Source of the DNA: Patescibacteria group bacterium
GTDB taxonomy: Bacteria > Patescibacteriota > Minisyncoccia > UBA6257 > 2-01-FULL-56-20
Length of the DNA: 64,000 nt
Assembly: GCA_024654525.1 (NCBI GenBank)
Contig: JANLHI010000021.1
Span: 1,969-65,968, forward strand
Direction of reading: 5' to 3'
Shown here: in pieces, positions 1 to 25,873 of the stretch
How positions within the stretch are numbered: the stretch's first letter is position 1
Layout: every line of letters starts with the position of its first letter
Position numbers and translations under genes: made by a program
The notes under the pieces: model-generated
Told to the model about the DNA's origin: nothing
Database searches by the model: none
What the model saw: the letters and a program-made list of their open reading frames with translations, nothing else

Positions 1-99
1 CTAGGCAACTTCTTAAAAACTAATCCAAGAGATACCTGTTATCGCATAAATGCGATGATACGGTAAAACCCGCCGTCGCGAAACGCTATGGCGAGATAA

Positions 100-345
100 A
101 ACCCGCCTGTGTTCATGCGAACTATGGCGAGGCGAAGTGGGGAAGCGGGTGAGAATCCCGCACAGTGCCGCTACGGTGAAGTCCCGCCTGTGTTCAATAG
201 AACTTCGGCGAGACACAAGTCCGAGTACCACTCTTTGGAATGTTTCGTGTGCGTCCCCGCATTCTGCGGGGCAAGTCTCTCGAGCAAGAGGCAAGCCTGT
301 TTGTCGAACAGACTCCCCCTTGCGGTGGGTTTTTTATTTCCGAAT
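100..345 (+). promoter_or_regulatory. Candidate cobalamin (AdoCbl) riboswitch with expression platform, upstream of the 398..2257 gene
   Basis: Core AGUGGGGAAGCGGGUGAGAAUCCCGCACAGUGCCGCUACGGUGAAG (about 137-182) matches the conserved cobalamin-riboswitch core (GGGAA..GGUGA.AAUCC..ACAG; compare T. tengcongensis AGUGGGAAAGUGACGUGAAAUUCGUCCAG). A B12-box-like AAGUCCGAGUACCACUC follows at about 218-234. A strong hairpin CCCCGCAUUCUGCGGGG (256-272) and a GC-rich segment plus U-run (about 312-336) precede the start codon at 398. Downstream genes are B12-related. Confidence 0.6.
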
Positions 346-397
346 AAATTCCCCATCGTAGTATTAATTATAAAAAGCGGATGATCCGCTTCGTCTC

Positions 398-2257
398 ATG
401 AAAAAAAAGTTATTCGCGAGTATTCTACTCGCCACGTTCCTTGCAAACACGTTTGTAGCAGCAATTCCCGTGCACGGCGACACAAACACTTCAATTACTT
501 ATCTGAAGTCAAAGCCACTCACCCCATGGACCATCATGGCGCTTATCGCCGCGGGAGAATCTCCCTCGCTTGATTCGCTCAAAACTCTCCCTGAAAACGG
601 AAAGGCGATTGATTATGAAGCGCCTATTCTCGCCATTACTTCCGCCAATAAAGATCCCCGCACATTCGGAAGCGAAGATTATGTCGCAAAACTCAAAGGA
701 TTTTCGGATGGCATTCAACTCGGCGACACCACGATTTTGAATGATGACGTATTCGGTATTCTTGCGCTTGTCGCCGCAGGAGAACCGAAGGACGGCGACA
801 TAATTTCGCAGACGACGCAGTTCCTCCGTAACCATCAGAATGGCGATGGAGGATGGGGATATGCCGTGGGTGGTACGAGCGATACTAATACCACCGCCGC
901 CGCAGTCATGGCGCTTGCCTCAACGGGAATGCCCTCGAGCGAAGAGCCGATAGTGAACGCGCTTGAATACCTGAAAGCCGCGCAGAACGGCGATGGGGGG
1001 TTTCCTTACGACCCCAAGAGCGAATGGGGTACGGATTCGGACTCATCTTCGGACGCATGGGTAATCATGGCAATTAAGAGCGCAGGGCAAGATCCTTCCT
1101 CGTGGCAAAAGGAAGGCGGAACACCCATCTCCAACCTTGCTACGTTTGAAGACGAATCGGGGTTTTATCTCTATCAACCCGGCAACTCCGAAGATTCATT
1201 CAGCCCTACCACTACTTCATACTCACTGATTGCTCTCGCGGGAAAATTCTTTCCGCTCCATACCATCACACCCACAACACCCACGTCCGTACATTATTCC
1301 TACAGAATAGAAGGAAAAACGCAGGGGCTTTGCGCGGGAGAATCGGACGGACTCAAAGCAATTGATTCGATACCGACCGCCGGCGATGCATGCGGTATTA
1401 CCTATCATATCCAAGAATCCTCACTTGGTTCCTATGTCGACGAAATTGCTACGGAAAAAGCGGAAGGTTCTTCGGGATGGATGTATACCGTGAACAATGA
1501 ACCTCCGAGTGTCGGCGCAAGCGACTACACATTGTCCGCAGGGGATGGAATAATTTGGTATTACGGCGTGTATGGCGACGAACTCCTTCGTCTTACATTG
1601 AATACCACAAGTACTTCTGCAGGCACTCCCATTTCGGGCACCGTGGCAACCTACCATGCACATGCATGGACTCCCCTTGCAGATGCGGTAGTACGCACCA
1701 CGACCGCGTCCACCACCACCGACGGCACGGGAACATTTTCACTCACGCTTCCCGAAGGGATACACTCCCTTGTCGCGGAAGCTCCTCGGCATATTCGCAG
1801 TAATATGGAGAAGATAATGGTGGGCACTCCCGACGCCACTGCAATCGAGCTCAGCGTCACTATTCCCGAATCCCAAAATACAGGAGGGGGTAACACGGGG
1901 GGGAACGGTGGGACTGGAGGAGGCGGTTCTTCTCAAGGCGTATCGATTATGGTAGAAACAGGCACGGAAGATGGGGGCCTTGATTTCGGTTCGCTTGGGA
2001 TAGGCGCCTCACAAAAGAAAACTATTACTATAAAGAATCGTGGCAATAAAAAACTTGCCATGCAGGCGGTAGTCGGCGGGGATGACATATTCAGAAGCTA
2101 TCTCTTTCTTGACGGAAAAACATGGCGCGTATTCCATGTTGCAGTGGATCCCGGAGCATCAGTCGCACCCGAAACATCGCTTCGCATCCCATCCGCGTAT
2201 TCCGCAGCAGGTATAAAAAAGGGATCACTTGTATTCTGGGCGGTGCCTACGGAATAA
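398..2257 (+). CDS. Secreted transcobalamin/intrinsic-factor-like cobalamin-binding protein: N-terminal signal peptide, prenyltransferase/squalene-cyclase-type alpha/alpha-toroid repeats, DUF4430-like beta domain, beta-sandwich domains and a Gly-rich linker
   Basis: Signal peptide MKKKLFASILLATFLANTFVAA. Repeated QNGDGGWGY / QNGDGGFPY (QxxDGGW/F prenyltransferase-alpha/alpha-toroid repeat motif). Segment SGWMYTVNNEPPSVGASDYTLSAGDGIIWYYG resembles the DUF4430 (transcobalamin beta-domain-like) signature. GGGNTGGNGGTGGGGSS linker. Sits directly downstream of the candidate B12 riboswitch. Confidence 0.6.
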   Translation: MKKKLFASILLATFLANTFVAAIPVHGDTNTSITYLKSKPLTPWTIMALIAAGESPSLDSLKTLPENGKAIDYEAPILAITSANKDPRTFGSEDYVAKLKGFSDGIQLGDTTILNDDVFGILALVAAGEPKDGDIISQTTQFLRNHQNGDGGWGYAVGGTSDTNTTAAAVMALASTGMPSSEEPIVNALEYLKAAQNGDGGFPYDPKSEWGTDSDSSSDAWVIMAIKSAGQDPSSWQKEGGTPISNLATFEDESGFYLYQPGNSEDSFSPTTTSYSLIALAGKFFPLHTITPTTPTSVHYSYRIEGKTQGLCAGESDGLKAIDSIPTAGDACGITYHIQESSLGSYVDEIATEKAEGSSGWMYTVNNEPPSVGASDYTLSAGDGIIWYYGVYGDELLRLTLNTTSTSAGTPISGTVATYHAHAWTPLADAVVRTTTASTTTDGTGTFSLTLPEGIHSLVAEAPRHIRSNMEKIMVGTPDATAIELSVTIPESQNTGGGNTGGNGGTGGGGSSQGVSIMVETGTEDGGLDFGSLGIGASQKKTITIKNRGNKKLAMQAVVGGDDIFRSYLFLDGKTWRVFHVAVDPGASVAPETSLRIPSAYSAAGIKKGSLVFWAVPTE

Positions 2258-2275
2258 TCGCGAATCACTCATCTC

Positions 2276-2824
2276 ATGCTCAATACTACAAATAGCCGCC
2301 TTATACTCGGAGCAATTGCTGCAATTGCGCTACTTATTATTCCGTTTACTTTTGTGCGCGCAATCGGCATTACCGCACTTCCCTCCGAAATTACGATAAC
2401 AGTGTCGCGAGGAGAAAATACCACAGCCCACCTTACCGTTCAGAATCCCTCGCGCGAGGTCGCGATATTTGAAGTCTATCCCGATGACCTTGATACCATG
2501 ATCATACCGATCCCCTCGCGGTTTACGCTTGAATCAGCCGAAACGCGCGTAATAGAAATAAAACTTATCCCAAAACAAGAAGGAGTATTTACCACCAATC
2601 TTTCTGTTCTTGCACGTCCCATTACTGACCCACTTCTCGGCATTGGAAGCGGTCTTAAGATTCCCATCAATATCACCGTCACCGCACCACGCACTATGTC
2701 GCTTGCATCAATAATTTCCCTCTCATCACCTCTGGGAATCATTGTTGCGCTTCTTGCAACACTTGCAGTATGTATTTATGCGTTTCATCGTGCACTTAAA
2801 AAAAGAACCGCAGAGCGGTATTAA
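2276..2824 (+). CDS. Hypothetical membrane-anchored protein (N-terminal TM/signal, beta-rich domain, C-terminal TM anchor); likely co-transcribed with the 398..2257 gene
   Basis: 18-nt gap after the upstream gene, same strand. Hydrophobic N-terminus LILGAIAAIALLIIPF and C-terminal TM LGIIVALLATLAVCIYAF followed by basic residues. Confidence 0.4.
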   Translation: MLNTTNSRLILGAIAAIALLIIPFTFVRAIGITALPSEITITVSRGENTTAHLTVQNPSREVAIFEVYPDDLDTMIIPIPSRFTLESAETRVIEIKLIPKQEGVFTTNLSVLARPITDPLLGIGSGLKIPINITVTAPRTMSLASIISLSSPLGIIVALLATLAVCIYAFHRALKKRTAERY

Positions 2825-2847: not shown

Positions 2848-3306
2848 TTATTGCGAAATACGTCCGAGAAGAGGAATGCGTGAAAACGCACGTTCCAATC
2901 CCCACATATGTCCCGCGCGCAACGCAGAGAGAAGGAGTAGCGCCGCGGCATAGATAATATGTTCATCCACAATATACGAGTGCGCGTTCGGATAGGGAAA
3001 CTCAAGAATCGGAAGATAGTAGAGCACCATCATCAACGCACCGAGGATACCACTCCACCGCACCCCGATGCCTAAAATAAGAGATGCTCCGATAAGGGTT
3101 AATCCCCACTCGTTTATAAAGTTGGTAAACGGAAGCAATGCGGGGCTCGCAAGTGCGTTATAGAATCCAGGAAATGTTTTTGCAGATTGAAGATATCCAA
3201 CCGCAGACCATGCAGGATTCATTATTTTGACAATACCTGCGTAGAAAAACATCCACCCCGTTGTGATGCGAAGTAGAAACACCGCTATTTTCGCATTACG
3301 TCTCAT
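2848..3306 (-). CDS. DoxX family membrane protein
   Basis: 152 aa, four hydrophobic segments, N-terminal motif AVFLLRITTGWMFFYAGIVKI typical of DoxX/DoxD-like proteins. Confidence 0.55.
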   Translation of the reverse strand: MRRNAKIAVFLLRITTGWMFFYAGIVKIMNPAWSAVGYLQSAKTFPGFYNALASPALLPFTNFINEWGLTLIGASLILGIGVRWSGILGALMMVLYYLPILEFPYPNAHSYIVDEHIIYAAALLLLSALRAGHMWGLERAFSRIPLLGRISQ

Positions 3307-3317
3307 TATATGAATAA

Positions 3318-3899
3318 TTATACCACAATCTTCTTATCCACACCACCCACAATTGCCGGTTCGAGCGCTCTATTTACCACCACCCACCGATAGATGAGCG
3401 GACTAAGTAATGCACTTAATGTTACGTTTCCCGCAAGGTGCATAAGGGTAAACGGAATCTGACCCACAAGCGCCCCCATAAAGGGCTGACCAAAGAGAAG
3501 AGGCCCCATGGTTAGTCCTGTAATTGCATCATAGAGAATCGTGCCTCCTGCGGCGTATACTGCATAGTAGAGAGGGCTATTATTTTTCGAACGGAGAAAC
3601 CACGCCGCACTCATGCCCACTATGCCGTACGCGGTCGCGGTAAGCAAAGTCCATATTCCTCCGGTTCCCGTCACTAAATCGTAGAGGATAATATTCCCCG
3701 CCCCGAAGAGGAATCCCACAAGATATCCGTGATGTTTTGCAAACGGCATCACGGTAGCCATGATTGGCTCCACATTCGGCGCACGGAAAGGTATGAGGCG
3801 CAATATAAGACAAAATATAATCCCCACACCATACTTCAGCGCATCGCTTCGAAAGCGAAACCGGTGAAATTGTTTTTTTGCTGTTTCCATGTTCATCAT
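3318..3899 (-). CDS. Small polytopic membrane protein, possible ECF S-component/BtuM-like vitamin (cobalamin?) permease
   Basis: About 190 aa with five to six TM helices and Gly-rich helix motifs (GFLFGAGNIILYDLVTGTGG; AAGGTILYDAITG). Lies immediately upstream of cobO, within the B12 locus. The function is inferred from context only. Start adjusted to the internal Met to avoid overlapping cobO. Confidence 0.35.
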   Translation of the reverse strand: MMNMETAKKQFHRFRFRSDALKYGVGIIFCLILRLIPFRAPNVEPIMATVMPFAKHHGYLVGFLFGAGNIILYDLVTGTGGIWTLLTATAYGIVGMSAAWFLRSKNNSPLYYAVYAAGGTILYDAITGLTMGPLLFGQPFMGALVGQIPFTLMHLAGNVTLSALLSPLIYRWVVVNRALEPAIVGGVDKKIVV

Positions 3900-3903
3900 T
3901 ATA

Positions 3904-4425
3904 TCAGTATTCGACTCCTTTTGCCCCCTGCACTCCTTCCGCATATGGATGTTTTATTTCTCTCATTTCAGTAACTAAATCCGCTACTTCAATAAAACTC
4001 AAGGGAGCGTCTCTTCCAGTAAAAATAAGATGCTCCACTTTTGATTCCGCTTTTATTCTCACCACATTAACCTCTTGTTCGGTGATAAGCCCAAGTGCTA
4101 TCGCATTATGCACTTCATCAAGTATTACTGCATCCCACTCTCCGGAAAGGATTTCCTTTTCCGCATAGGCAAGCGCTTCTCTTGCCGCACGCGCATGTTC
4201 TTCGCGAGGCAAAGTATCGCCCAAAATTCCCACAAACCCCTTCCCCATTTTCACTATTTTAAATTTCGGCGCAAGCAATTTTGAAGCATCATCCTCTCCG
4301 CTTCGCCACGGGCCTTTGATAAACTGCACCATGAGCACCCTCTTCCCGTCGCCCACGAGCCGCATCGCCTGTCCCAATGCCGCCGTAGTCTTACCTTTCC
4401 CATTACCGGTGAAAATAAGAAACAT
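3904..4425 (-). CDS. cobO: Cob(I)alamin adenosyltransferase (CobO/BtuR/CobA family, PduO-unrelated)
   Basis: N-terminal P-loop-like FTGNGKGKTTAALGQAMRLVGDG and overall similarity to CobA/BtuR ATP:corrinoid adenosyltransferases. Start chosen at MFLIFTGNGKGKTT; the ORF track starts 7 codons earlier at 4446. Confidence 0.8.
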   Translation of the reverse strand: MFLIFTGNGKGKTTAALGQAMRLVGDGKRVLMVQFIKGPWRSGEDDASKLLAPKFKIVKMGKGFVGILGDTLPREEHARAAREALAYAEKEILSGEWDAVILDEVHNAIALGLITEQEVNVVRIKAESKVEHLIFTGRDAPLSFIEVADLVTEMREIKHPYAEGVQGAKGVEY

Positions 4426-4531
4426 ACTCGTCACACTTATGACCAATAACCTATAATAGAATTCAATCTCATGAAATTTATTGAACTTGGTTATTAGTTA
4501 TCAGTATTCCGTGTTATAAGTTTCCGTGCAG

Positions 4532-7252
4532 TCATGAACACGAACCGCTTGCAGTGCCACATTGAATACACGTCTTACAGCTTCCAGTCTGAATTAACAT
4601 TCCTCCGCATGTACGGCACACACTATCCGCAAATATAATTTTTGCCGGCGAAGATTCGTTATTTACCACTTCAACCTTTTTCACTTCAGGCATTGACGGA
4701 ATGTTTTCTACTCCATCAAGCTCCTTATGAGGCACTTTTATGCCCAACCCCTCAAGCTCATTCGCGGAAAGGAATCGTACCGCAAGATATCGAAACACAT
4801 AATCAGTAATTGATGTCGCAACTTGCACATCCTGATTCTTTGTAAAACCGGCGGGTTCATATCGGCCATAAGAAAATTTCTGTACCAACGTTTTAAGCGG
4901 TACACCATACTGACACGCAATCGACACCATAATCGCGAATGCATCCAAAAGCCCCGCGAGTGTCGATCCTTGTTTCGACATCCTGATAAAGATTTCTGCA
5001 AGGCCTCCCTCTTCAAACATGCTGTAGGTAAGATATCCTTCGTGTCCTCCGATCGAAAACTTGTGAGTCTCGGATGCACGCGTTGCAGGTAGGTGTCGGC
5101 GAGCGGGCTTCTGCTCTTTTTTCTTTTGATTCCCCGAGCCCGTGAAAAGCGGCTGTGCAGCCTTCGAACCATCGCGATACACCGCGAACGCTTTCAATCC
5201 CATCTTCCAGCCCATCATAAACGCCTGTTCCACTTCCTCCACCGTTGTCTCGTGTGTCATATTGAACGTCTTCGATATCGCACCGGAAAGGAACGGTTGC
5301 ACCGCCGCCACCATTTTCACGTGTCCCTTCCACGAAATAGAACGCGCTCCATTCGAAGGTTTTATTGCACAATCAAAAACGGGAAGGTGCTCCTCCTGAA
5401 ATCCCGGAGCTCCTTCTATGGTTCCCTGTTGCTCAATGTAAGCCACGATTCCCGCACGCGATTCATCGTCATATCCAAGTTTTACCAATGCTCGATCCAC
5501 TACATTATTTACGAATTTCATCATTCCTCCTCCCACAAGACGCTTCATTTTTACCAATGCAAATTCCGGTTCGATTCCCGTGGTTACACAATCCATCATC
5601 AATGCAATGGTACCCGTTGGGGCAAGAACCGATACTTGCGAATTTCGCACACCCCAGCGCCGTGCATCTGCAACCGCCCCACTCCATGCTTCGTGAGCGG
5701 CGCTCATGATGCCGTTATCGAAGGAATAGACATCGTCAACATTATCAATCGCATCGCGATGCATAGAAAGCACCTTAAGCATTGCATCTCTGTTTTCCTG
5801 ATACCGAGAAAAAGGATGCATCACTCGCGCAATCTGTGCGGAAAAACGATACGCTTCTCCCGTCATAAGCGCCGTAATTGCCGCAGCCGAGCTCCGCGCT
5901 TCATCCGAATCATATGGAATTCCGAGTGACATCAACAGTGCGCCAAGATTTGCATATCCCAATCCCAGTTGTCGAAAATCGTGTGTATTTTTTCCTATCC
6001 GTGACGTGGGGTACGATGATCCGTCCACTAAAATTTCCTGCGCAAGAATCATGATATCAACCGTACGGCGAAATCCTTCCACATCAAACCCTCCCTCCGG
6101 TGTGAGATAGTGAAGCAGATTGATTGATGCAAGATTACATGCGGAATTATCCACATGCATATATTCACTGCACGGATTCGATGCATTAATACGTCCGGAG
6201 TTTGGACACGTGTGCCAACGGTTAATAGTGGTATCGAACTGCATTCCCGGATCACCACAACTCCATGCTGACTCTGCAATCGCCCGCATCATATCGCGCG
6301 CTTTATACGTGTCCGCAACCGCTCCATTCGTTACTTGCTTCGTGCGCCACTCGTCATCCTGTTCCACCGCTTTCATAAACGCATCGGAAACACGCACGCT
6401 ATTGTTCGCATTTTGATATTGAATGGAATTCCATGCCGAGTCATTCAAATCAAACATATCGTACCCTCCGTCCATGAGCGCCTTTACCTTTTTTTCTTCC
6501 TCCGACTTCACATGAATAAATTTCATGATATCGGGGTGATCGACATTCAAAATCACCATTTTTGCTGCACGTCGCGTAGAACCGCCCGAGGCGATCATGC
6601 CCGCTACGGAATCCGCCCCGCGCATAAAAGATACCGGTCCCGATGAGAAACCTCCATGCGACAATGTTTCTCGTGTTGAGCGGAGCGCCGAGAGATTTAT
6701 TCCCGCTCCAGAACCACGCTTAAAAATCAAACCTTCCGTAGTAATCCAATCAAGGATAGATTCCATCGAGTCCTCCACGGAAAGAATAAAACACGCCGAG
6801 CATTGTGGTTTTGCATCAAGTCCTAAATTAAACCACACCGGGGAATTGAACGCCGCACGCTGATGCAACAATACATAGGTGAGTTCTTCGGCGTACACAT
6901 CGGCATCGTGTGCATTCGAAAAATAGTGATAACGAAGCCCCCACTCACGCACCGTCTTCACTACACGTCCAATCATTTGCTTAATCGAAGATTCCCGTTC
7001 TGTGGATCCCACTCGCCCGCGAAGATATTTCGAACCTGCGATTTCGGCAGCGTTTTCTGACCACACTTCGGGAAATTCCAACTCGCGCTCTTCCCTTGCT
7101 CCATTCGTACCTCTCACTGTTACCCTGCGCGTTTTCCACGCAACTTCATCGAAAGGATGCACTCCTTCGCGAGTAAAATACCTCTCCGTAAATGACTTTC
7201 CGCTTTCACGATGCGCTTTTGTATTTATTGCCAAAGGCGATGTACGTTCCAT
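4532..7252 (-). CDS. nrdJ: Adenosylcobalamin-dependent (class II) ribonucleotide reductase
   Basis: 906 aa. RNR catalytic-core motifs (NPCSEYMHVDNSACNLASINL, active-site Cys/Asn/Glu region). C-terminal Cys-rich tail CRTCGGMLIQTGSCKTCIQCGTASGSC. No NrdB partner nearby. cobO is adjacent. Confidence 0.85.
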   Translation of the reverse strand: MERTSPLAINTKAHRESGKSFTERYFTREGVHPFDEVAWKTRRVTVRGTNGAREERELEFPEVWSENAAEIAGSKYLRGRVGSTERESSIKQMIGRVVKTVREWGLRYHYFSNAHDADVYAEELTYVLLHQRAAFNSPVWFNLGLDAKPQCSACFILSVEDSMESILDWITTEGLIFKRGSGAGINLSALRSTRETLSHGGFSSGPVSFMRGADSVAGMIASGGSTRRAAKMVILNVDHPDIMKFIHVKSEEEKKVKALMDGGYDMFDLNDSAWNSIQYQNANNSVRVSDAFMKAVEQDDEWRTKQVTNGAVADTYKARDMMRAIAESAWSCGDPGMQFDTTINRWHTCPNSGRINASNPCSEYMHVDNSACNLASINLLHYLTPEGGFDVEGFRRTVDIMILAQEILVDGSSYPTSRIGKNTHDFRQLGLGYANLGALLMSLGIPYDSDEARSSAAAITALMTGEAYRFSAQIARVMHPFSRYQENRDAMLKVLSMHRDAIDNVDDVYSFDNGIMSAAHEAWSGAVADARRWGVRNSQVSVLAPTGTIALMMDCVTTGIEPEFALVKMKRLVGGGMMKFVNNVVDRALVKLGYDDESRAGIVAYIEQQGTIEGAPGFQEEHLPVFDCAIKPSNGARSISWKGHVKMVAAVQPFLSGAISKTFNMTHETTVEEVEQAFMMGWKMGLKAFAVYRDGSKAAQPLFTGSGNQKKKEQKPARRHLPATRASETHKFSIGGHEGYLTYSMFEEGGLAEIFIRMSKQGSTLAGLLDAFAIMVSIACQYGVPLKTLVQKFSYGRYEPAGFTKNQDVQVATSITDYVFRYLAVRFLSANELEGLGIKVPHKELDGVENIPSMPEVKKVEVVNNESSPAKIIFADSVCRTCGGMLIQTGSCKTCIQCGTASGSCS

Positions 7253-7263
7253 AGTTTGTTGAG

Positions 7264-7593
7264 TTATAGCGGACTTACTACCGACGCCGACTTACTCCAT
7301 AAATCCTTGAAAATCCGACACGGCTCGACAATCCGGGGATCTGTAATTCTGTAATATATATTCAAACCGTCACGTCTCGTCAGCACCGCCCGCGCATAAC
7401 GCAAACGCGCAAGATGTTGCGACATATTCGCCTTGGAAACATCGAGGGTCTTTGCAAGCTCATTAACAGATGCCTCGTGCACTTTGAGAATATTTAAAAT
7501 TTCAAGCCTCTTCGGATTTGCAAGAATTTTATAGAGAAACGCATTGCGCTTATACACACTTTTTGGAAACGGTGACATGACTTTTGTTCTCAT
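7264..7593 (-). CDS. ArsR/SmtB family metalloregulatory transcriptional repressor
   Basis: HTH segment LANPKRLEILNILKVHEASVNELAKTLDVSKANMSQHLARLRYARAVLTRRDG. Start set at the internal Met (MRTKVMSPF); the upstream part of the ORF is probably not coding. Confidence 0.7.
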   Translation of the reverse strand: MRTKVMSPFPKSVYKRNAFLYKILANPKRLEILNILKVHEASVNELAKTLDVSKANMSQHLARLRYARAVLTRRDGLNIYYRITDPRIVEPCRIFKDLWSKSASVVSPL

Positions 7594-7880
7594 AATTGCG
7601 AAATTTCTTAACTTGCTTCTCCAGCATACTCCCCGCCCATCACTCCTGTAAAGCGAAAAAATTATCCACAACATACGACCATACCCAAGCGTAATGCGCA
7701 ATCGGAAAAACCCTATATTTTCCCTCGTGATACCTCTTTTTCCAACCAATTTCAATGCTTCTTACCCAGTAGCGTCATCTAAACCTCCTCTTTTTGAGCA
7801 TTATCGCGCGTATGGCAACAATCATAACTGAAATAAACTTATCCTCTCCGTATAAAGAGAATAATCCCTTGCGTAGACCC

Positions 7881-10469
7881 TTATGCTTTTTTTAATCGTA
7901 ACGAATTCAAAACAACACTTATACTGCTAAACGCCATTGCTGCTGCGGCAAAGATTGGACTAAAAAGAATTCCAAAAAAGGGATAGAGGATTCCGGCGGC
8001 AACGGGAATAAAAGCGATGTTATAGAAAAACGCCCAGAAAAGATTTTGCTTTATTACTCTCATCGTGCGTTTCGAAATATTTATCACTTCGGGAATCAAC
8101 ATCAAATCTCCTCTCATCAGCGTGATATTCGCCGATTCCATGGCAATATCCGTACCTTCGCCCATAGCGATACCAATATTCGCTTGAGTAAGAGCCGGCG
8201 CATCATTAATACCATCACCAATCATTGCCACAATTTTTCCTTGATTTTGAAGCTCGCGTACTTTTTCCGACTTCTTATCGGGTAATATTTCGCTCATCAC
8301 CTTGTCTATACCCACCTGTGTCGCAATAGCACGAGCGGTGCGGTCATTGTCTCCGGTAATCATCCAGACATCTATATTATTTTTCTTGAGAGTTTGTATT
8401 GCTTCGATTGATTCTCTTTTTAATACATCAGCCACCGCAAGCGCCCCCTTGATTTTTTTATCAACTATAAGAATCATTACCGTCTTGCCTTCATTTTCAA
8501 GACTACTGATATTGTCTTCGTAAGGAGAAATATCGAGACCAATATCTACAACCAAAGCTCGGTTTCCTAAATATGCCTCAACCCTTTGATTTTGAATTTG
8601 CAAAAATCCCTTCAAACCCTTTCCGGAAATAGCCTTAAAATCTTCCAGCTTGTGAAGCTTAATCTTCTCTTTTATCACTTCATCCGCGATTGCCTTATCA
8701 AGAGGATGTGATGATTTTTGATCAAGACTTGCGGCATACTGCAGTATAGCCTGCGCCAAAGGATGCTCCGACCTCTGCTCTAATGAAGCGGCGAAGGTAA
8801 GAACTTCTACTTGGCGACCATTATTGAACGCGACAATATCGGTTAATTGTGGTTTTCCTTCCGTAAGCGTGCCTGTTTTGTCTAAAACCACCGTGTCTAT
8901 TTTATTGGCAATTTCAAGCGAAGTGGCATCTTTGATTAAAATACCTTTATTTGCCGCACTCCCCGAAGAAACCATAATAGCCATAGGAGTTGCAAGACCG
9001 AGAGCGCAAGGACACGCAATTATCAAAACCGCTACAAAGTTTACAAGCGCGAAAGTAAATGCGGGGCCAAAAAAGAACCACGCGATAAAAGTAATAATTG
9101 CAATAACAAAGACCGCAGGAACAAAATACGAAGAAACGAGGTCTGCTAAACGCTGAATAGGCGCTTTGGAACCTTGAGCTTCTTCCACCATTTTAATTAT
9201 TTGCGAGAGCACCGTTTCTTTTCCGACTTTGGTAGCTTGGAAAGTGAAAGTTCCAAATTTATTTATCGTACTGCCGATAACCGCGCCCCCAATCGTCTTA
9301 TGCACAGGCATTGATTCTCCGGTTACCATTGATTCGTCAACTTCCGAATCCCCCTCGGTTATTTTCCCGTCAACAGGGATCCTCTCCCCCGGACGCACAA
9401 TGATTAAATCCCCTACCACCACATCGGAAATCGATATCTCAACTTCTTTTTCCTCTCTTAATACTTTTGCGGTCTTAGGTTGTAACCCAATAAGTTTTTT
9501 GATGGCTTCCGAAGCTCTTCCTTTCATCAACACTTCAAAATATTTTCCCAACAGAATCAAAACAATAATGATTGCCGAAGTATCAAAATAGACCGCCGGA
9601 GTTATTCCTTCTTTTATGAAAAAAGAGGGGAAAACAGTAACTACTACACTATAAAAATATGCAGCGAGTGTCCCCACGGCAACCAGAGTGTTCATATCGG
9701 CAGTCCGATATTTTACTACAAGTTTGAGTCCGCTATAAAACTGCCAACCGACCCAAAACTGCACCGGTGTGGTTAACACAAGAAGCACCCAATTATTGCC
9801 TAAAATTTTAGGAATGAAAGAGAATAAATCAGAGAAACTACCCAAAAATATAAACGCAGAAAGAATAGCGCCGATTACGAGTTTGCGTTTTAATATCTTT
9901 GCCTGATTTTCTCTTTCAAGTTTTTCCTTATCTATAACTTCTTCCTTGATGCCTTCTTCTTTGATTGGTGTGTAACCCGCATCAGTAATAACTTTTAAAA
10001 TTTCACTGGTATTTATCAAAGATGAATCAAAAACCACCTTGGCTCGCTGGTTGGAAAAATCAACATCTGTATTTTTGATACCTGATAACTTTTTTATGGC
10101 ACCCTCCACAATCATGGCGCAATGAGGAGAATCCATACCTATTACTTTCATCGAAACCGTTTCAGTATTTCCATTTGCATCACCAAAACCACGATGAGGC
10201 GAATCAACGAGTATCTCTTCTTTTTTGTCGGTAGTCATATATGCGCCTTTTTCTTTCTCACTCACTTCAAGATGATACCCTACTGATGCAACAATTTTTG
10301 CAAGTTCCGACTCGGAAATAACACTGTTATCAAATTCAATCAATGCGGATTCCGAAGCAAAATTAACCGAGGCTGAATGTACGCCTTCCGTTTTCAAAAG
10401 CACACGCTCGATTGTCGCAACACAACTTGCGCAATGCATTCCATTAATTGAGTATGTCTTTTTAATCAT
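7881..10469 (-). CDS. copA: Copper-translocating P1B-type ATPase
   Basis: Two N-terminal HMA domains (GMHCASCVATIE and GMDSPHCAMIVE), CPC motif (IIACPCALGLATP), DKTGTLT phosphorylation site, GDGINDAPAL hinge motif. Confidence 0.9.
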   Translation of the reverse strand: MIKKTYSINGMHCASCVATIERVLLKTEGVHSASVNFASESALIEFDNSVISESELAKIVASVGYHLEVSEKEKGAYMTTDKKEEILVDSPHRGFGDANGNTETVSMKVIGMDSPHCAMIVEGAIKKLSGIKNTDVDFSNQRAKVVFDSSLINTSEILKVITDAGYTPIKEEGIKEEVIDKEKLERENQAKILKRKLVIGAILSAFIFLGSFSDLFSFIPKILGNNWVLLVLTTPVQFWVGWQFYSGLKLVVKYRTADMNTLVAVGTLAAYFYSVVVTVFPSFFIKEGITPAVYFDTSAIIIVLILLGKYFEVLMKGRASEAIKKLIGLQPKTAKVLREEKEVEISISDVVVGDLIIVRPGERIPVDGKITEGDSEVDESMVTGESMPVHKTIGGAVIGSTINKFGTFTFQATKVGKETVLSQIIKMVEEAQGSKAPIQRLADLVSSYFVPAVFVIAIITFIAWFFFGPAFTFALVNFVAVLIIACPCALGLATPMAIMVSSGSAANKGILIKDATSLEIANKIDTVVLDKTGTLTEGKPQLTDIVAFNNGRQVEVLTFAASLEQRSEHPLAQAILQYAASLDQKSSHPLDKAIADEVIKEKIKLHKLEDFKAISGKGLKGFLQIQNQRVEAYLGNRALVVDIGLDISPYEDNISSLENEGKTVMILIVDKKIKGALAVADVLKRESIEAIQTLKKNNIDVWMITGDNDRTARAIATQVGIDKVMSEILPDKKSEKVRELQNQGKIVAMIGDGINDAPALTQANIGIAMGEGTDIAMESANITLMRGDLMLIPEVINISKRTMRVIKQNLFWAFFYNIAFIPVAAGILYPFFGILFSPIFAAAAMAFSSISVVLNSLRLKKA

Positions 10470-10531
10470 GGCTTTTCAGTATGGCTCTTTTTTACCTTAA
10501 ATTCCACGTACACCGTACGCACTTTACACAT

Positions 10532-11449
10532 CTACACTCCGCACCCTCCTCCCCCTCCTCCTTGACCTTCCGGCACTTCAACCTGCGTGGCAACCGTTTG
10601 AAAACCGGAGATACTCGAATACTTTTCCCCCAGGATTTCTTTCGGATTTACGCGTTGAGGATCAATGTTTCGAGAGGTGAAATATTGGGCAATCGTCGCA
10701 TATTGTTCGGGAAACCAAAAAGCGTTTGTCGCAAGCGCTATGCGATACATTTCTCCTTCAGTAGCGCCCCCGGACGCCAGAAACTGCAACAACCCCAACA
10801 TTGCCATACCATGATTACAATCGGGAAAGTACGTCGCATTATTGCAACATGGACGATATATATTTTTCGCCACATTCTCCACAAGCGTTTGATCCTCTTC
10901 GGTAAGCGCAAGAAATATATGCGCACTATAATGCGCCATTGCGTTACCGTGCGCGAGCGTCCACCCCCCTGTGGATGCAAACCGCTCCGCACCGCCATAA
11001 CGAGGACTCATCATCGGTCCCTCTTCCAAAATCCGATTCTTATTGCCAAGTCCCAATGCCCAAAAAAGATTGAGGAGAATACTCGCATTTTTTTGATCTA
11101 TTATCACATTCCCATTGTCCAAACCCGTAAGAAGTTTTTGTTCGCGCTCCGGTACGCCGCCCTGCACGGCGTAGATCGCTTCGAATTGATTCTTATCAAT
11201 TACTCCTGCCTCTATCATGCGCGCACCAAGATCACGCCACTTCACGGGAAGTGCAACAAGCTCTTCTTGTCCTGGACGGTTCTCATCGGAAAGATTGGGA
11301 ACATGTTTGCTTGTAATTACCGGCTGACTCTTCATTCCGGTTGTGTATATCCATGCACCCGCGAGCACCAAAGATGCAATCACAATACTCACCGAAAGCG
11401 TAATAGTATTTCTTTCCTGTTGCGTATTCGCTTTGTTTTCTGATTCCAT
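10532..11449 (-). CDS. Hypothetical membrane-anchored protein in the copper operon (N-terminal TM, Cys-containing CCNNATYFPDCNHG segment, Gly-rich C-terminus)
   Basis: ORF with a single N-terminal TM helix (ITLSVSIVIASLVLAGAWIYTT). No recognisable family. Start moved to an ATG at 11449; the track's 11482 start appears to be GTG. The overlapping plus-strand ORF 10481..11443 is rejected as spurious. Confidence 0.4.
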   Translation of the reverse strand: MESENKANTQQERNTITLSVSIVIASLVLAGAWIYTTGMKSQPVITSKHVPNLSDENRPGQEELVALPVKWRDLGARMIEAGVIDKNQFEAIYAVQGGVPEREQKLLTGLDNGNVIIDQKNASILLNLFWALGLGNKNRILEEGPMMSPRYGGAERFASTGGWTLAHGNAMAHYSAHIFLALTEEDQTLVENVAKNIYRPCCNNATYFPDCNHGMAMLGLLQFLASGGATEGEMYRIALATNAFWFPEQYATIAQYFTSRNIDPQRVNPKEILGEKYSSISGFQTVATQVEVPEGQGGGGGGCGV

Positions 11450-11459
11450 TGTATTGAAG

Positions 11460-11891
11460 TTAGCGACAACAACCGCCTGCACTCACATCATCCGACTTTT
11501 CCGACACGACACGATCAATAGCTTTCTTCAACTTCTCTTCCGCAATACGTGCAATTTCTTTCAATGCAAAATTATCAATCATTTCCATCGCTACCGTGGG
11601 AAGAATTGTTGCCACCCGCACCGTACCTTTTTCCTCATACACAATGATATTGCACGGCAAAAATAATCCTATTTCCTTCTCCGCAATAAGTGCATTGTAT
11701 GCAAGTTGCGGGTTGCATGCACCGAGAATTACGTACCTATCAACATCAACATTTAATTTCTTTTTGAGTGTTGCACGCACATCAACTTCGTGCAACACTC
11801 CGAAACCCTCACTCGCAAGCTCTTCTTTTATACGAGTAACCGCCTCTTCAAAAAGAATCTTTGCAACGCATGTATGACTGTATTTCATCAC
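11460..11891 (-). CDS. DUF302 domain protein
   Basis: 143 aa, characteristic DUF302 layout (FGVLHEVDVRATLKKKLNVDVDRYVILGACNPQLAYNAL). DUF302 genes are frequently found in heavy-metal resistance operons. Confidence 0.6.
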   Translation of the reverse strand: MMKYSHTCVAKILFEEAVTRIKEELASEGFGVLHEVDVRATLKKKLNVDVDRYVILGACNPQLAYNALIAEKEIGLFLPCNIIVYEEKGTVRVATILPTVAMEMIDNFALKEIARIAEEKLKKAIDRVVSEKSDDVSAGGCCR

Positions 11892-11893
11892 TG

Positions 11894-12583
11894 TTATGCA
11901 AGTAAATCTTTCTTCTTTTCCTCGAACTCTTTCCTGTCAATTTCTCCTTTTGCGTAACGCTCTTTTACTATCTCAAGCGCCAATCCTTTGCGATGCACAT
12001 TACTTCCCGAAACACTTGTCGCCCATCGCACAATCATAACGATGCCTGCAATGATAAGCGCCCAAAAAAGAAACATTACAATCCACCCCGATGTCCCCAT
12101 ATGCCCAAAACCATATCCATATCCCATCATGTTATATACCGGATATCCCCACGGAGCCGACCCTACTCCGTTTTTTACTGTCTTTACGTTTTCAAGAGAA
12201 TTAGATGCATTTCCTCCCCATAAACCCATCATTCCGTATCCATCACTTCCTTCATATACCGCATCGGGATTACACCCAGAAAACCGCTCTCCCATCGTCT
12301 CATGCATTGCTCGAAGCCCTTCTGCACCAGCTCTATCCCTTACCGATTGATCCATCGCTTCATGCGCATTTCCCATCATTCCATCCATGAAATACTCACC
12401 CAGATTCTCAAAATCCTCATCCCGAAAATTCGCACACTGCGTTTTTCCAGATTGCAATTCCTTCCATAAACTCTGTCCCGCAACAACCGTCGCATCTTCC
12501 CCGACGGCTTGCACAGAAATTCCCGCTACCATAACCGCCACTGCAAACATCATAACCCATACCATTCCCTGAAATCGTTTCAT
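11894..12583 (-). CDS. Secreted/membrane Met-, His- and Gly-rich putative copper-binding protein with a C-terminal SHOCT domain
   Basis: Signal/TM region, Met-rich motifs (MDGMMGNAHEAM; GYGMMGLWG; YNMMGYGYGFGHMG), a TM segment, then a SHOCT-like tail LEIVKERYAKGEIDRKEFEEKKKDLL. Confidence 0.55.
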   Translation of the reverse strand: MKRFQGMVWVMMFAVAVMVAGISVQAVGEDATVVAGQSLWKELQSGKTQCANFRDEDFENLGEYFMDGMMGNAHEAMDQSVRDRAGAEGLRAMHETMGERFSGCNPDAVYEGSDGYGMMGLWGGNASNSLENVKTVKNGVGSAPWGYPVYNMMGYGYGFGHMGTSGWIVMFLFWALIIAGIVMIVRWATSVSGSNVHRKGLALEIVKERYAKGEIDRKEFEEKKKDLLA

Positions 12584-18441: not shown

Positions 18442-19477
18442 TTATATATCGGCACTTTCAATCTCTGCTTCGATAAACATGCTCAAATCACCCTCAAGCA
18501 CTTTATTTACCTGCGAGGTCTCGACTTCCGTACGATGGTCTTTCACCAATTGATACGGATTCAGTACATACGACCTAATTTGATTTCCCCACTCCGGCTT
18601 CACTTTGATACGAATATTTGAAAGCTCTTCTATATGATGTTTCTCCATAAGTTGCACTATCTTCGCCTTCAAAAGACGCAGGGCGTACTCGCGGTTTTGC
18701 TGTTGAGAACGCTCGACGCGGGAGCTTACCGCAATACCGGTAGGAATGTGGACAATACGCACCGCAGTCTCTACTTTATTTACGTTCTGCCCTCCCGGCC
18801 CACCGGCGCGCGAGAATTCAAATTTTAAATCTCCTTCGGGAATCACCACTTTCGACTCCTCTACGGGAGGAAGATCGGGTACCACTTCCACAAGCGCAAA
18901 TGCGGTATGACGAAGTTTTTTCGGGGAAAACGGGGAAATACGCACAAGCCGATGCACTCCGGATTCTTTTTTCAGATATCCGAAAGCATATTGCCCTTTT
19001 ACTTCAATCATTCTGCTACGGGGGTTATCATCCACAATTCGCGTTTTCCATTCCTGTAACTCGGCATACTTTATATACATTTCCGCAAGCATCCGCGCCC
19101 AATCCTCTGCATCCTCTCCTCCCGCACCGGGATAGAACGAAAGTATCGCCGATTGCGTGTCATATTTTCCTTTAAATAATTCCTTGAGTTCTAAAAAGCG
19201 AAATTTTCTTTTTATATCGTAATAAAGACTTTCATCGAATAATGATTCAAGTTTTATGATTCCTTCTTCTACTTCCTCATATTGATCCGTGAGATCGCGA
19301 AGTATTCCGAGTTGTTTAATCTTCTCGTCGGCAATCGTTCGATTACCCCAAAACTCAGGCTCACTTATCGCCTTTTCAATCGCCTCTATCTCCTTTTTTT
19401 TAGCCGTTACGTCAAAGCCGCCCGCCTAACCGGCGGGCTTCGATTGCAAATTCCTCTAGCTGCGCTTTGAAATCCAT
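18442..19477 (-). CDS. prfB: Peptide chain release factor 2, expressed via a +1 programmed ribosomal frameshift
   Basis: Frame 0 (from ATG at about 19477) encodes MDFKAQLEEFAIEARRLGGRL followed by TGA within CTT TGA C (about 19411-19417). The +1 frame continues DVTAKKKEIEAIEK... into the listed ORF 18442..19092, which contains the GGQ motif (SRAGGPGGQNVNK) and an SPF-type RF2 region. Confidence 0.85.
19411..19417 (-). other. prfB +1 frameshift site CTT TGA C
   Basis: The canonical RF2 autoregulatory frameshift heptamer, located at codon 21-22 of prfB. Confidence 0.8.
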
Positions 19478-24336: not shown

Positions 24337-24340
24337 ATAA

Positions 24341-25873
24341 TTAATATACTTTCACCTCGTACGGAATCTGCTTAAAGACGATGTTATGAGCGGCAAGTGT
24401 GTCGTCGTCCAATAGACATCGGTCTGCGTAGACTATCTTCTTTTTATCAGAATCTCCAATCGTCTTGAGTGTCGCCTTGTCGAGCTCATTTTTGTTCTTT
24501 CCCTTGTAGAGAAGATAGTATTCGGTGTCGCCATACTCGCCGATATAGTTGCCACTGATTTTCTTTGGGTCAATATTTGTTTGCGTTTCGGTGAAGTAGA
24601 TATAAGTGGCAAATTGTTTAAAATCGCAGGTTTCTTCGATCTGTCCATCCTCGTTGAAAAGCGGCTTGTCTAACTCGCAATACTCAAAGCCGTCATTGTA
24701 GTCGTACTTTTTGATAGCCCGCTTCACGCGCTCGGCAGTAATGTCTCTTGCAACCTTATCTTCCATTTCCACGAGGATAAATTTCCGGCTTCCACCGTCT
24801 TCTTTGTTTAAGTCCAAAACAGCTTGCGCTGTTGTACCGGAGCCTGCAAATGAGTCCAAAATGAGAGAGTCTTTTTGCGAAGCTAGTTCAAGAATTCTTT
24901 TGATCAAACCGACGGGTTTTGGCGTCTCAAAAATACCTCCATCAAAAAGATTAATAATCTCATTCTTACCTTCCTTGTTTGTCGCAACGTCTGTCCAAAT
25001 GTTGCTTGCCGGAATACCCGTGCTCTCGTGCGCATAAATCACGCGCTGAGGTACACCGTCGCCTTTCATGCCAAAATAAATCTTGCCCTCACTCAGTAGA
25101 CGTTTATAGCTTTCCTCCGGGTATGCCCATTCTCTTTTGTGTTTTTTGCCAGAAGGCGTAACTATTTCGTAAGTATATCCACCACTTTTATGCCCCTTTG
25201 TTGTGGCTATGGGTACCGGTCTCCACTTTCCGTTTGGAAATTCTTTTGTCGGCGGTTTGTATGCAGTTTCAATATAAGCTTCGCTGAGAGAAAGCAAATT
25301 AAGTTGGGCGATTTTGGAACGAGCATACACAACGATATATTCTGCCTTTACCGTGATATTTCTACTATCGTTTGAGCTCTCTTTCTTCCGTTGCCATGTG
25401 ACGGTCGTAACGTGATTTTCTTCAAGAAAAATCTCATCCATAGCACCACGAAGATTGCAGTGCTCATTTTCATCAACAGAAATAAATATAAATCCGTCGT
25501 CTGTTAGTAAATCGCGCAAAAGTTTCAGGCGCGGATACATCATGCAAAGCCACTTGTCGTGACGCGTTAAATCTTCCGACTCTTTTCCGACAACTTTGCC
25601 AAGCCACTGTTTTATCTTTGGTGAGTTTACTTTGTCGTTATAAACCCACCCTTCGTTGCCGGTATTGTACGGAGGATCAATGTAAATACATTTAACTTTG
25701 CCGACATAGTGTGGCATCAATGCTTTAAGCGCTTCCAAATTGTCGCCGTGCACTATGAGGTTTTTTGAATGCTCGCCAACAGACGCACCTTTTACTTTCT
25801 TGAACAACTTAAAAGGAACCTCCTTATCGTGGTTTACAACTGCATCTTTACCTATCCAGTTTAGCGTTGCCAT
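24341..25873 (-). CDS. mod: Type III R-M DNA methyltransferase, Mod subunit (N6-adenine or N4-cytosine MTase, DPPY type)
   Basis: Motif IV CIYIDPPYNTG and motif I LILDSFAGSGTTAQAV; 510 aa. Confidence 0.85.
   Translation of the reverse strand: MATLNWIGKDAVVNHDKEVPFKLFKKVKGASVGEHSKNLIVHGDNLEALKALMPHYVGKVKCIYIDPPYNTGNEGWVYNDKVNSPKIKQWLGKVVGKESEDLTRHDKWLCMMYPRLKLLRDLLTDDGFIFISVDENEHCNLRGAMDEIFLEENHVTTVTWQRKKESSNDSRNITVKAEYIVVYARSKIAQLNLLSLSEAYIETAYKPPTKEFPNGKWRPVPIATTKGHKSGGYTYEIVTPSGKKHKREWAYPEESYKRLLSEGKIYFGMKGDGVPQRVIYAHESTGIPASNIWTDVATNKEGKNEIINLFDGGIFETPKPVGLIKRILELASQKDSLILDSFAGSGTTAQAVLDLNKEDGGSRKFILVEMEDKVARDITAERVKRAIKKYDYNDGFEYCELDKPLFNEDGQIEETCDFKQFATYIYFTETQTNIDPKKISGNYIGEYGDTEYYLLYKGKNKNELDKATLKTIGDSDKKKIVYADRCLLDDDTLAAHNIVFKQIPYEVKVY

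Follow-up and report, generated by a model that had tools for sequence, protein, structure and literature searches.

A transcobalamin-like protein under cobalamin riboswitch control as a probable extracellular B12 binder of Patescibacteria

A stretch of 64,000 nucleotides (nt) of contig JANLHI010000021.1 (positions 1,969 to 65,968; GenBank assembly GCA_024654525.1), referred to here as the window, derives from a Patescibacteria group bacterium and encodes, close to its start, a 619-residue protein in which an alpha/alpha toroid is combined with a DUF4430 beta-grasp domain and two beta-sandwiches. We call this protein the binder, after the role proposed for it below. Its gene lies between a leader that contains an adenosylcobalamin (AdoCbl) riboswitch and a gene for a small membrane protein with an immunoglobulin (Ig)-like ectodomain, the partner. 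A convergent operon on the opposite strand encodes a membrane protein with the fold of the S-components of energy-coupling factor (ECF) transporters, a corrinoid adenosyltransferase and an AdoCbl-dependent ribonucleotide reductase (RNR), together with two further genes (Table 1). A preliminary description of the locus had seen in the binder a probable cell-surface B12 capture protein, related in architecture to the animal B12 carriers transcobalamin (TC) and intrinsic factor (IF) and placed under riboswitch control.

Table 1. Coordinates of the features discussed in the text; aa, amino acid residues of the encoded protein; AF2, AlphaFold2; HTH, helix-turn-helix.
Feature	Position in window	Strand	Basis or remark
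Leader direct repeat, 30 nt	102..131 and 183..212	+	83% identical; partial copy at 66..96
Cobalamin riboswitch aptamer, AdoCbl-II class	122..238	+	Rfam RF01689, clan CL00101
Candidate intrinsic terminator of the expression platform	315..339	+	CCCCC-TTGC-GGTGGG hairpin, then TTTTTTATTT; read from the sequence
Binder gene (619-aa transcobalamin-like protein)	398..2257	+	ATG start; Pfam domains, AF2 model, Foldseek
Predicted signal peptide, aa 1 to ~27	398..478	+	MKKKLFASILLATFLANTFVAAIPVHG; no lipobox, no LPXTG
Alpha/alpha toroid (single), aa ~30-290	485..1267	+	SQHop_cyclase_C/_N matches, 11 helices, two QxxDGG[WF], invariant N115-D116-D117
DUF4430 / transcobalamin-like SLBB beta-grasp domain, aa ~296-392	1283..1573	+	PF14478; invariant Cys312-Cys332 pair
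Beta-sandwich 1, aa ~395-490, carboxypeptidase-regulatory/prealbumin-like	1580..1867	+	Model and weak CarboxypepD_reg match
Gly-rich flexible linker, aa 494-514	1877..1939	+	Surrounding sequence QNTGGGNTGGNGGTGGGGSSQG; disordered in model
Beta-sandwich 2, aa ~517-617, ASH/Cep192/PapD-like Ig domain	1946..2248	+	Weak Ig-family matches
Partner, 182-aa ASH-like Ig membrane protein	2276..2824	+	Starts 18 nt past binder stop; weak ASH match
DoxX-family membrane protein, last gene of convergent operon	2848..3306	-	Pfam
ECF S-component-fold membrane protein, candidate B12 importer	3318..3890	-	190 aa (NCBI gene model); AF2 and Foldseek
BtuR/CobA ATP:corrinoid adenosyltransferase	3904..4446	-	PF02572, 182 bits; TIGR00708 cobA, 167.7 bits
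Class II (adenosylcobalamin-dependent) RNR	4532..7252	-	Ribonuc_red_lgC, 475 bits; Ribonuc_red_2_N, 56.9 bits; TSCPD
ArsR-family HTH regulator, first gene of convergent operon	7264..7755	-	HTH_5, 39.3 bits
Heavy-metal cluster	7881..12583	-	Adjoins the B12 genes
P1B-type ATPase	7881..10469		Two HMA domains; heavy-metal cluster
DUF302 protein	11460..11891		Heavy-metal cluster
SHOCT-domain protein	11894..12583		Heavy-metal cluster
216-aa open reading frame resembling the downstream frame of prfB (release factor 2)	18442..19092	-	C-terminal part of PCRF, and RF-1 domain
Type III restriction-modification pair and adjoining genes	22072..25873 and 26356..28715	- and +	ResIII helicase and N6_N4 methylase
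DnaE (DNA polymerase III alpha, 1439 aa)	29853..34172	+	Intein; Intein_splicing at aa 614-980

The binder begins with MKKK and the sole hydrophobic segment of the protein (aa 4-27), which by its sequence is a Sec-type signal. Its only two cysteines, C312 and C332, lie in the beta-domain and are invariant in an alignment of 75 relatives, so that the binder fits an exported, possibly disulfide-bonded protein. For a check, the preliminary description had named the DUF4430 (PF14478) and the Prenyltrans (PF00432) profiles. The first is found at aa 342-389 well above its Pfam cutoff (50.3 bits against 23.8, E 3.3e-13) and in 75 of the 75 aligned relatives, as had been read from a short segment of the protein; the second stays below its own in the binder (21.4 bits against 26.5), and is matched at E<=0.1 by all 75 relatives. 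Two profiles of the same alpha/alpha-toroid group as Prenyltrans exceed their Pfam cutoffs over the toroid, SQHop_cyclase_C with 42.6 bits (cutoff 26.1) and SQHop_cyclase_N with 30.6 bits (cutoff 26.2), and the QxxDGGW/F repeats noted earlier are present in two copies, QNGDGGW at aa 147 and QNGDGGF at aa 196.

A structure model of the binder was computed with AlphaFold2 on the alignment of the 75 relatives and has a mean predicted local distance difference test score (pLDDT) of 90.8 and a predicted TM-score (pTM) of 0.72. It consists of a signal helix, a toroid of 11 helices (aa ~30-285), an alpha/beta domain (~298-390) and two beta-sandwiches (~395-490 and ~517-617), the latter two joined by the Gly-rich linker, the sole internal segment with pLDDT <50; both extra sandwiches and the linker had been anticipated. 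Values are lower in the signal segment as well, where the means of 10-residue blocks across aa 1-30 are 74, 69 and 64 and aa 2-20 form a helix. The first sandwich resembles CarboxypepD_reg at aa 412-484, under the cutoff (25.8 bits against 32.3) and at E<=0.1 in 33 of the 75 relatives, and the second gives weak matches at aa 517-570 to Cep192_D4, Cep192_D2 and HYDIN Ig domains, that to Cep192_D4 recurring in 53 of the 75.

Comparison of the model with the structures in the PDB using Foldseek places the binder next to the animal carriers. The 15 best matches are all IF, TC or haptocorrin (HC), with E-values from 9e-13 to 4e-10; they comprise IF (3kq4_A, E 9e-13, and 2pmv), HC (4kki) and TC structures that include 8ixu, 7qbe, 4zrp, 2bb5 and 2bb6, and each alignment extends over ~420-430 columns, spanning the toroid and the beta-domain. 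Lower in the ranking, with E-values of 2e-8 or weaker and over the toroid only, are the beta-subunits of geranylgeranyl- and farnesyltransferases, drimenyl-diphosphate synthase and squalene-hopene cyclase. At the sequence level, a family profile restricted to the beta-domain and searched against the whole PDB matches TC and HC only (E 2.5e-4 to 3.4e-3), namely the TC-2 beta-domain 5no0_A (E 2.5e-4), HC 4kki_A (2.8e-4) and full-length TCs; the beta-domain of the binder as a single sequence has no match in the PDB. The invariant columns of the domain are G344, G360, W361, G373 and A374, with Y346 and Y377 near-invariant. G344 and Y346 align with G360 and Y362 of TC, within the TC segment S357-L363, while G360-W361 aligns with TC F376-W377, and G373-A374 and Y377 with TC G390-I391 and Y394. 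L358 of TC makes a hydrogen bond to the phosphate of B12 through its backbone (PMC5599065), and anchoring by the ligand involves TC strands b3'-b7' and the b7'-b8' loop (PMC11107200). Judging from these alignments, the conserved motifs of the binder cover the regions of TC that contact or anchor B12, and its beta-domain is detectably homologous to that of TC. The likeness of the toroid to the TC alpha-domain, which the preliminary description had surmised, is supported by the fold matches of the model and by the shared architecture; the Cobalamin_bind profile (PF01122) has no match in the binder at E<=0.1 and is outside the 25 families commonest among the 75 relatives.

By sequence alone the toroid would be placed elsewhere. 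An alpha/alpha toroid with QW-like repeats is common to squalene-hopene and other class II terpene cyclases and to the beta-subunits of prenyltransferases, which give the best raw sequence scores, and the strongest matches of the binder are squalene-hopene cyclases (E 4.5e-15 with the single sequence, 2e-25 with a profile) and drimenyl-diphosphate synthase; there is in addition a sub-threshold match to the NCBIfam 'SCO2321 family membrane protein' (82 bits; cutoff 300). The toroid could on these grounds be taken for a terpene cyclase, a prenyltransferase, an isoprenoid-binding module or a binder of lipid or envelope components, with DUF4430 as an accessory only. We consider this highly improbable. 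The sequence matches are confined to the structural QW-type repeats (aa 121-240); a regular-expression search found neither DxDD nor DDxx[DE] anywhere in the binder, the invariant N115-D116-D117 reading L-N-D-D and therefore not DxDD; and the binder has one toroid of ~255 aa, unlike the double (beta-gamma) toroid of the cyclases. The zinc of prenyltransferase beta-subunits is held by Asp, Cys and His ligands, and because the toroid of the binder has no cysteine, a site of this type is impossible. Unlike these enzymes, moreover, the binder is predicted to be secreted and carries a fused beta-grasp domain of the B12 type, and in the fold search IF, TC and HC outrank every cyclase and transferase. 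An identity as terpene cyclase or prenyltransferase was therefore rejected, for want of catalytic motifs and in view of the secretion of the protein; a missing DUF4430 match, or a confident assignment to a terpene cyclase with either motif intact, would have refuted the preliminary description, and neither is the case. A second candidate, the TED domain of alpha-2-macroglobulin and complement, was rejected since a toroid devoid of cysteine has no CGEQ thioester; weak TED_complement matches occur in 18 of the 75 relatives. Toroids of the binder type are also found in six proteins of 900-2050 aa (P0309, P0343, P0353, P0367, P0366 and P0371), which contain 4-6 tandem copies and match binder aa ~76-290 at 31-38% identity, so that this type of toroid has been reused in quite different multi-repeat architectures.

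The leader of the binder gene matches RF01689 with 38.1 bits, where the gathering score is 36.5 (E 1.8e-5 over the window as a whole), and the aptamer ends 160 nt before the ATG of the binder on the same strand. The margin over the threshold is only 1.6 bits, the match contains a 40-nt insertion, and its P1 helix is poorly paired; the aptamer core GGGGAAGCGGGTG.AAATCCCGCACAGTGCCGCTACGGT ... AGTCCGA.TACCA is identical in two relatives. In 10 of 18 independent related loci a riboswitch of the cobalamin clan exceeds its gathering score at 30-300 nt upstream of the binder homologue and on its strand. Four more have sub-threshold upstream matches on the same strand (E 9e-4 to 0.016), three of them at that position, the sub-threshold match of locus L025 lying ~420 nt before the homologue gene, and one further locus shows a weak match at the usual position (E 0.16). 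Elsewhere in the scanned related loci, with ~200 kb of flanking sequence, there is no cobalamin riboswitch. Because of this conservation upstream of the homologues, the riboswitch of the window is accepted in spite of its marginal score. As far as sequence comparison goes, riboswitch control of the binder is real and conserved across the family, and what had been claimed for one leader holds in at least 10 of the 18 related loci.

The expression platform is less distinct. The terminator hairpin of the window is weak, was not called by a simple terminator scan, and is ambiguous in its fold. The homologous site of loci L001 and L005 is occupied in each case by a clean terminator (CTCTTGC-loop-GCAAGAG, then a T-run), and comparison of these leaders brings out a conserved upstream element, GCAAGAGG, that could be the anti-terminator strand. 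From the aligned terminators of the relatives and the conserved GCAAGAGG we infer that the leader is a transcriptional OFF switch. The leader also contains a direct repeat of the form CCCGCCTGTGTTCA..GAAC..GGCGAG, each copy of which can fold as a small hairpin. Its second copy is the 40-nt insertion within the Rfam match; an insertion of this kind is present in L005 and absent from L001.

The partner gene immediately follows that of the binder; tblastn detects this order in 50 of 84 loci, and a hidden Markov model (HMM) in 54 of 80. The protein consists of an N-terminal signal or transmembrane segment, an Ig ectodomain, a C-terminal transmembrane helix and a basic tail, its hydrophobic segments being aa 4-37 and 140-174. 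The ectodomain is related to the C-terminal Ig domain of the binder according to HHalign (probability 73.6%, E 2.9e-5, 86 columns), while the control comparison with the middle domain of the binder yields 0.3%; BLASTP finds no match between the binder's C-terminal domain and the partner. We propose that the partner, co-transcribed with the binder, acts as a membrane anchor or dock for this otherwise soluble protein. The operon is longer in many relatives. Of 80 related loci, 27 additionally encode a standalone DUF4430 protein that carries a signal or anchor segment, and in 24 the binder operon ends with a gene for a DUF6580 membrane protein; the window has no second DUF4430 reading frame and no DUF6580 gene in its binder operon. 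In many relatives from the candidate phyla radiation (CPR), to which Patescibacteria belong, the extension consists of a DUF4430 protein of ~150 aa and a DUF6580 protein of ~180 aa (for example L003 10773..11849).

The convergent operon supplies the metabolic context. The class II RNR is the likely consumer of imported B12, and a Liptonbacteria relative, 69% identical, has the same gene arrangement as the B12 cluster of the window. The S-component-fold protein encoded next to BtuR has no Pfam match of its own and no match in a PDB sequence search, and its assignment derives from the AlphaFold2 model (pLDDT 90.4), for which the top Foldseek matches are FolT, RibU, ThiT, PanT and BioY (best TM-score 0.67-0.74, root-mean-square deviation (rmsd) 3.2-3.8 A). 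As modelled, it has the six-helix S-component fold. Among 45 relatives of the protein, 41 match the ECF S-component family PF07155 and 10 match PF20221 (DUF6580). BLASTP against a DUF6580 protein is not significant, and an HMM built from 24 DUF6580 reading frames aligns with it end to end and weakly (10.3 bits), a result at best consistent with the Pfam co-matches. Two unrelated genomes have a homologue at the head of an operon that also encodes a class II RNR, an adenosyltransferase of the PduO type and ArsR (L085 5001..8778 and L087 5001..8788), and in L001, as in these two, the operon of RNR and adenosyltransferase has an ArsR-type gene with it. The adenosyltransferase is swapped within this conserved operon, being of the CobA/BtuR type (PF02572) here and of the non-homologous PduO type (PF01923) elsewhere. 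The persistence of the same gene set around a non-homologous adenosyltransferase is good contextual evidence that the S-component-fold protein handles B12. DoxX genes, such as the one that ends the convergent operon, also occur in the vicinity of the binder gene in L005 and L043; in L001 that position is taken by an unannotated gene of 133 aa. Apart from BtuR, no cob or cbi genes are present among the reading frames scanned in the 64-kb window.

Of the components that could energize such a protein, the window encodes neither EcfA nor EcfT, its sole ABC ATPase being FtsE, paired with FtsX. Like BtuM and certain BioY proteins, the protein may function on its own; alternatively, its module may be encoded in another part of the genome. 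BtuM (PMC6072759) and ECF-CbrT have the S-component fold in common with the CPR membrane proteins, and for BtuM, as for the protein of the window, no ECF module is encoded nearby. The two differ in that BtuM has an invariant cobalt-ligating cysteine (PMC6072759); the 45 aligned relatives have no invariant or near-invariant cysteine, and their invariant residues include R31, N39, E41, D71, D121, Q144 and H151; on this account the protein is not a BtuM. Neither BtuM nor CbrT relies on an extracellular binding protein, and neither is among the top structural matches of the model. The location of the S-component-like gene outside the binder operon and the lack of an energizing module in the window leave room for a different role of the binder, as a surface reservoir of B12, a factor for competitive sequestration or a host-attachment protein, uptake proceeding by an unrelated route; for Bacteroides BtuJ1, an extracellular reservoir role has been put forward (bioRxiv 10.1101/2025.07.01.662609). 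Such a role still requires B12 binding and departs from uptake in the last step only, and it appears unlikely to us, since the joint occurrence of binder and DUF6580 S-component-like protein in one operon, in 24 of 80 loci as given above, argues for direct delivery.

An identical protein (P0001) is already on record under the name 'MAG: DUF4430 domain-containing protein [Patescibacteria group bacterium]'. The nearest relatives of the binder are 69-73% identical and include a Candidatus Liptonbacteria protein (P0004, 69%), in agreement with the CPR origin assumed earlier. Species-representative genomes contain 282 relatives, nearly all in Patescibacteria and spread over many classes, and the family amounts to at least 395 clusters at 50% identity (E<=1e-30). 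An archaeal relative occurs on a Candidatus Bathyarchaeia contig (JAWBPF010000064.1, L077, match 6..2374), 35% identical over binder aa 44-475, which could reflect lateral transfer or a binning error.

A precedent for this architecture is provided by Burroughs, Balaji, Iyer and Aravind (2007, Biol Direct 2:4; PMC1796856), who defined the SLBB superfamily, predicted that bacterial proteins combining a toroid with an SLBB domain are B12 scavengers, and proposed that animal transcobalamin was acquired from such bacteria. Both the architecture and the predicted function were thus already known. The proteins of that study have a signal peptide, a toroid fused to SLBB (N-terminal in some), extra Ig-fold domains and, frequently, a paralogous second SLBB protein in the operon, and the CPR loci are alike in all these respects. 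They were reported from low-GC Gram-positives, planctomycetes and some euryarchaea, in a paper that predates CPR genomes, and were linked to CbiO and CbiQ genes of an ECF module, of which there are none in the window; riboswitches, an ASH-like membrane partner and DUF6580, all three present in CPR loci, are not mentioned there (PMC1796856). Accordingly, of the earlier remark that such proteins are described in Firmicutes riboswitch regulons, the occurrence in low-GC Gram-positives is borne out by that paper and the riboswitches are not. The suggestion of novelty likewise stands in part: the literature searched contained nothing relevant on CPR B12 uptake, DUF6580, PF20221 or PF14478, and the architecture itself had been predicted for bacteria in 2007. 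What appears to be new is the breadth of the family in CPR, its family-wide riboswitch control, the conserved Ig-type membrane partner, a repeated association with membrane proteins of the S-component fold or the DUF6580 family that goes without an ECF module, and the recurrence of binder, Ig anchor, standalone DUF4430 protein and DUF6580 protein as one module.

No biochemistry was found in the literature searched for any bacterial member of the family, and the sole functional claim encountered is of a different ligand. In L. sakei, an ECF-like operon encodes transcobalamin-like alpha and beta parts as separate proteins, for which heme has been proposed as the ligand (bioRxiv 864751), a reviewer of the 2007 paper cautioned that SLBB ligands may be diverse (PMC1796856), and the beta-domain of TC also binds cobinamide (PMC5599065). 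The binder might, along these lines, bind a different tetrapyrrole such as heme, or a precursor of corrinoids such as cobinamide, in place of complete B12, and serve as a general tetrapyrrole scavenger. This seems quite improbable given that the binder and its homologues sit behind cobalamin-clan riboswitches, that the neighbouring genes encode a corrinoid adenosyltransferase and an AdoCbl-dependent RNR, and that heme was proposed from docking alone; an incomplete corrinoid as ligand, for its part, would be a sub-case of corrinoid capture and no true rival to it.

The comparison with known B12-binding systems puts the binder closest to the animal carriers. TC, IF and HC (2BB5, 4ZRP, 2PMV, 3KQ4, 4KKI) have the same order of an N-terminal toroid, of 12 helices, and a C-terminal DUF4430 beta-grasp domain, and they are secreted, as the binder is predicted to be. 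They differ in that the toroid of the binder lacks a Cobalamin_bind match and has QW-type repeats like those of terpene cyclases; in that the alpha-domain of TC has 3 or 4 disulfides (PMC11107200), whereas the binder has none there and an invariant cysteine pair in the beta-domain instead; and in that the binder adds two beta-sandwiches and a Gly-rich linker. Its gene, furthermore, is bacterial, riboswitch-controlled and in an operon with a membrane partner, and the binder would deliver its ligand to a membrane transporter and not through receptor-mediated endocytosis. The Bacteroides proteins BtuG, BtuH and BtuJ follow the same logic: surface proteins that capture B12 with high affinity are encoded together with B12 uptake genes, with folds unrelated to that of the binder, including proteins with a DUF4465 domain. 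BtuG is a beta-propeller. Unlike the CPR binder, the Bacteroides binders are lipoproteins that sit in the outer membrane of diderm cells and supply the TonB-dependent transporter BtuB.

On the strength of the DUF4430 domain and the IF/TC/HC fold, the signal peptide, the riboswitch, the context of BtuR and class II RNR, and the precedent of 2007, we consider it probable, at roughly 75%, that the binder is an extracellular corrinoid (B12) binder under the control of a B12 riboswitch; B12 as its ligand is what we infer from the same evidence. At low AdoCbl, the riboswitch would let transcription enter the operon of binder and Ig partner, and when AdoCbl is replete the ligand-bound aptamer would favour the terminator near 315-339. 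The binder would be exported via Sec. In TC, B12 binds the beta-domain first and the alpha-domain then closes (PMC11107200), and by analogy B12 would dock first on the DUF4430 domain of the binder, after which the toroid would close over it and leave the corrinoid sandwiched between the two domains. The two beta-sandwiches and the Gly-rich linker would form a stalk, and the last Ig domain would pair with the homologous ectodomain of the partner, keeping the binder at the cell surface. B12 would then pass to an S-component-fold membrane protein, the one of the convergent operon here and the operon-end DUF6580 protein in many relatives, and BtuR would adenosylate the corrinoid inside the cell to yield AdoCbl for the class II RNR. 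Tethering through the Ig partner is put forward tentatively, at not quite even odds, and the same reserve applies to the hand-off of B12 to the S-component-like protein. A more far-reaching version, in which riboswitch, binder, Ig anchor, standalone DUF4430 protein and DUF6580 S-component-fold protein form a complete, ECF-independent B12 import pathway of a new type, the binder being tethered by homotypic Ig pairing and giving B12 to a solitary S-component-fold transporter, and in which this pathway is the main B12 route for the RNR of Patescibacteria, strikes us as rather doubtful; if true, it would provide the first S-component transporter dependent on a binding protein.

Several of the observations weigh against corrinoid capture and delivery as proposed. 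The toroid is nearest by sequence to the QW repeats of squalene-hopene cyclases and not to the eukaryotic Cobalamin_bind family; the aptamer score is marginal and the terminator hairpin weak; the S-component-like gene is separate from the binder operon and has no ECF module near it; and to the lack of biochemistry is added a competing proposal of heme, albeit from docking. The superposition on transcobalamin suggested in the preliminary description gave a divided answer as well: IF, TC and HC are the top fold matches over both domains, and the two-domain superposition of the ligand-free model on holo-TC is poor (rmsd ~21 A, TM-score 0.39-0.46). Since the domains of TC associate only when the ligand is bound (PMC5599065, PMC11107200), a differing domain orientation in a ligand-free model is unsurprising; the closed sandwich geometry is not reproduced by the model, as would be expected of an apo form, and this proves nothing in either direction.

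The remainder of the window contains further features. The heavy-metal cluster stands directly beside the B12 genes, and the type III restriction-modification pair is accompanied by a Peptidase_M78/HTH protein and a 'Beta_protein' (PF14350) gene; in the Liptonbacteria relative, HinfI and methylase genes lie next to the B12 cluster. The intein of DnaE has an insert (aa 833-920) that resembles phage endonuclease I. The N-terminal part of prfB may be encoded in another frame, which would point to programmed +1 frameshifting.

CPR bacteria, or Patescibacteria, have minimal genomes and take most cofactors from other cells. Since many of them, including this one, use an AdoCbl-dependent class II RNR, acquisition of B12 may be essential for their replication, and the binder family, with its conserved and uncharacterised partners, is an obvious candidate for the capture step. 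Among bacterial proteins, the binder offers a compact parallel to the B12 carriers of animals. Biochemical and structural work on a CPR member would address a prediction made nearly 20 years ago, and could define a new route of B12 uptake across a single membrane.

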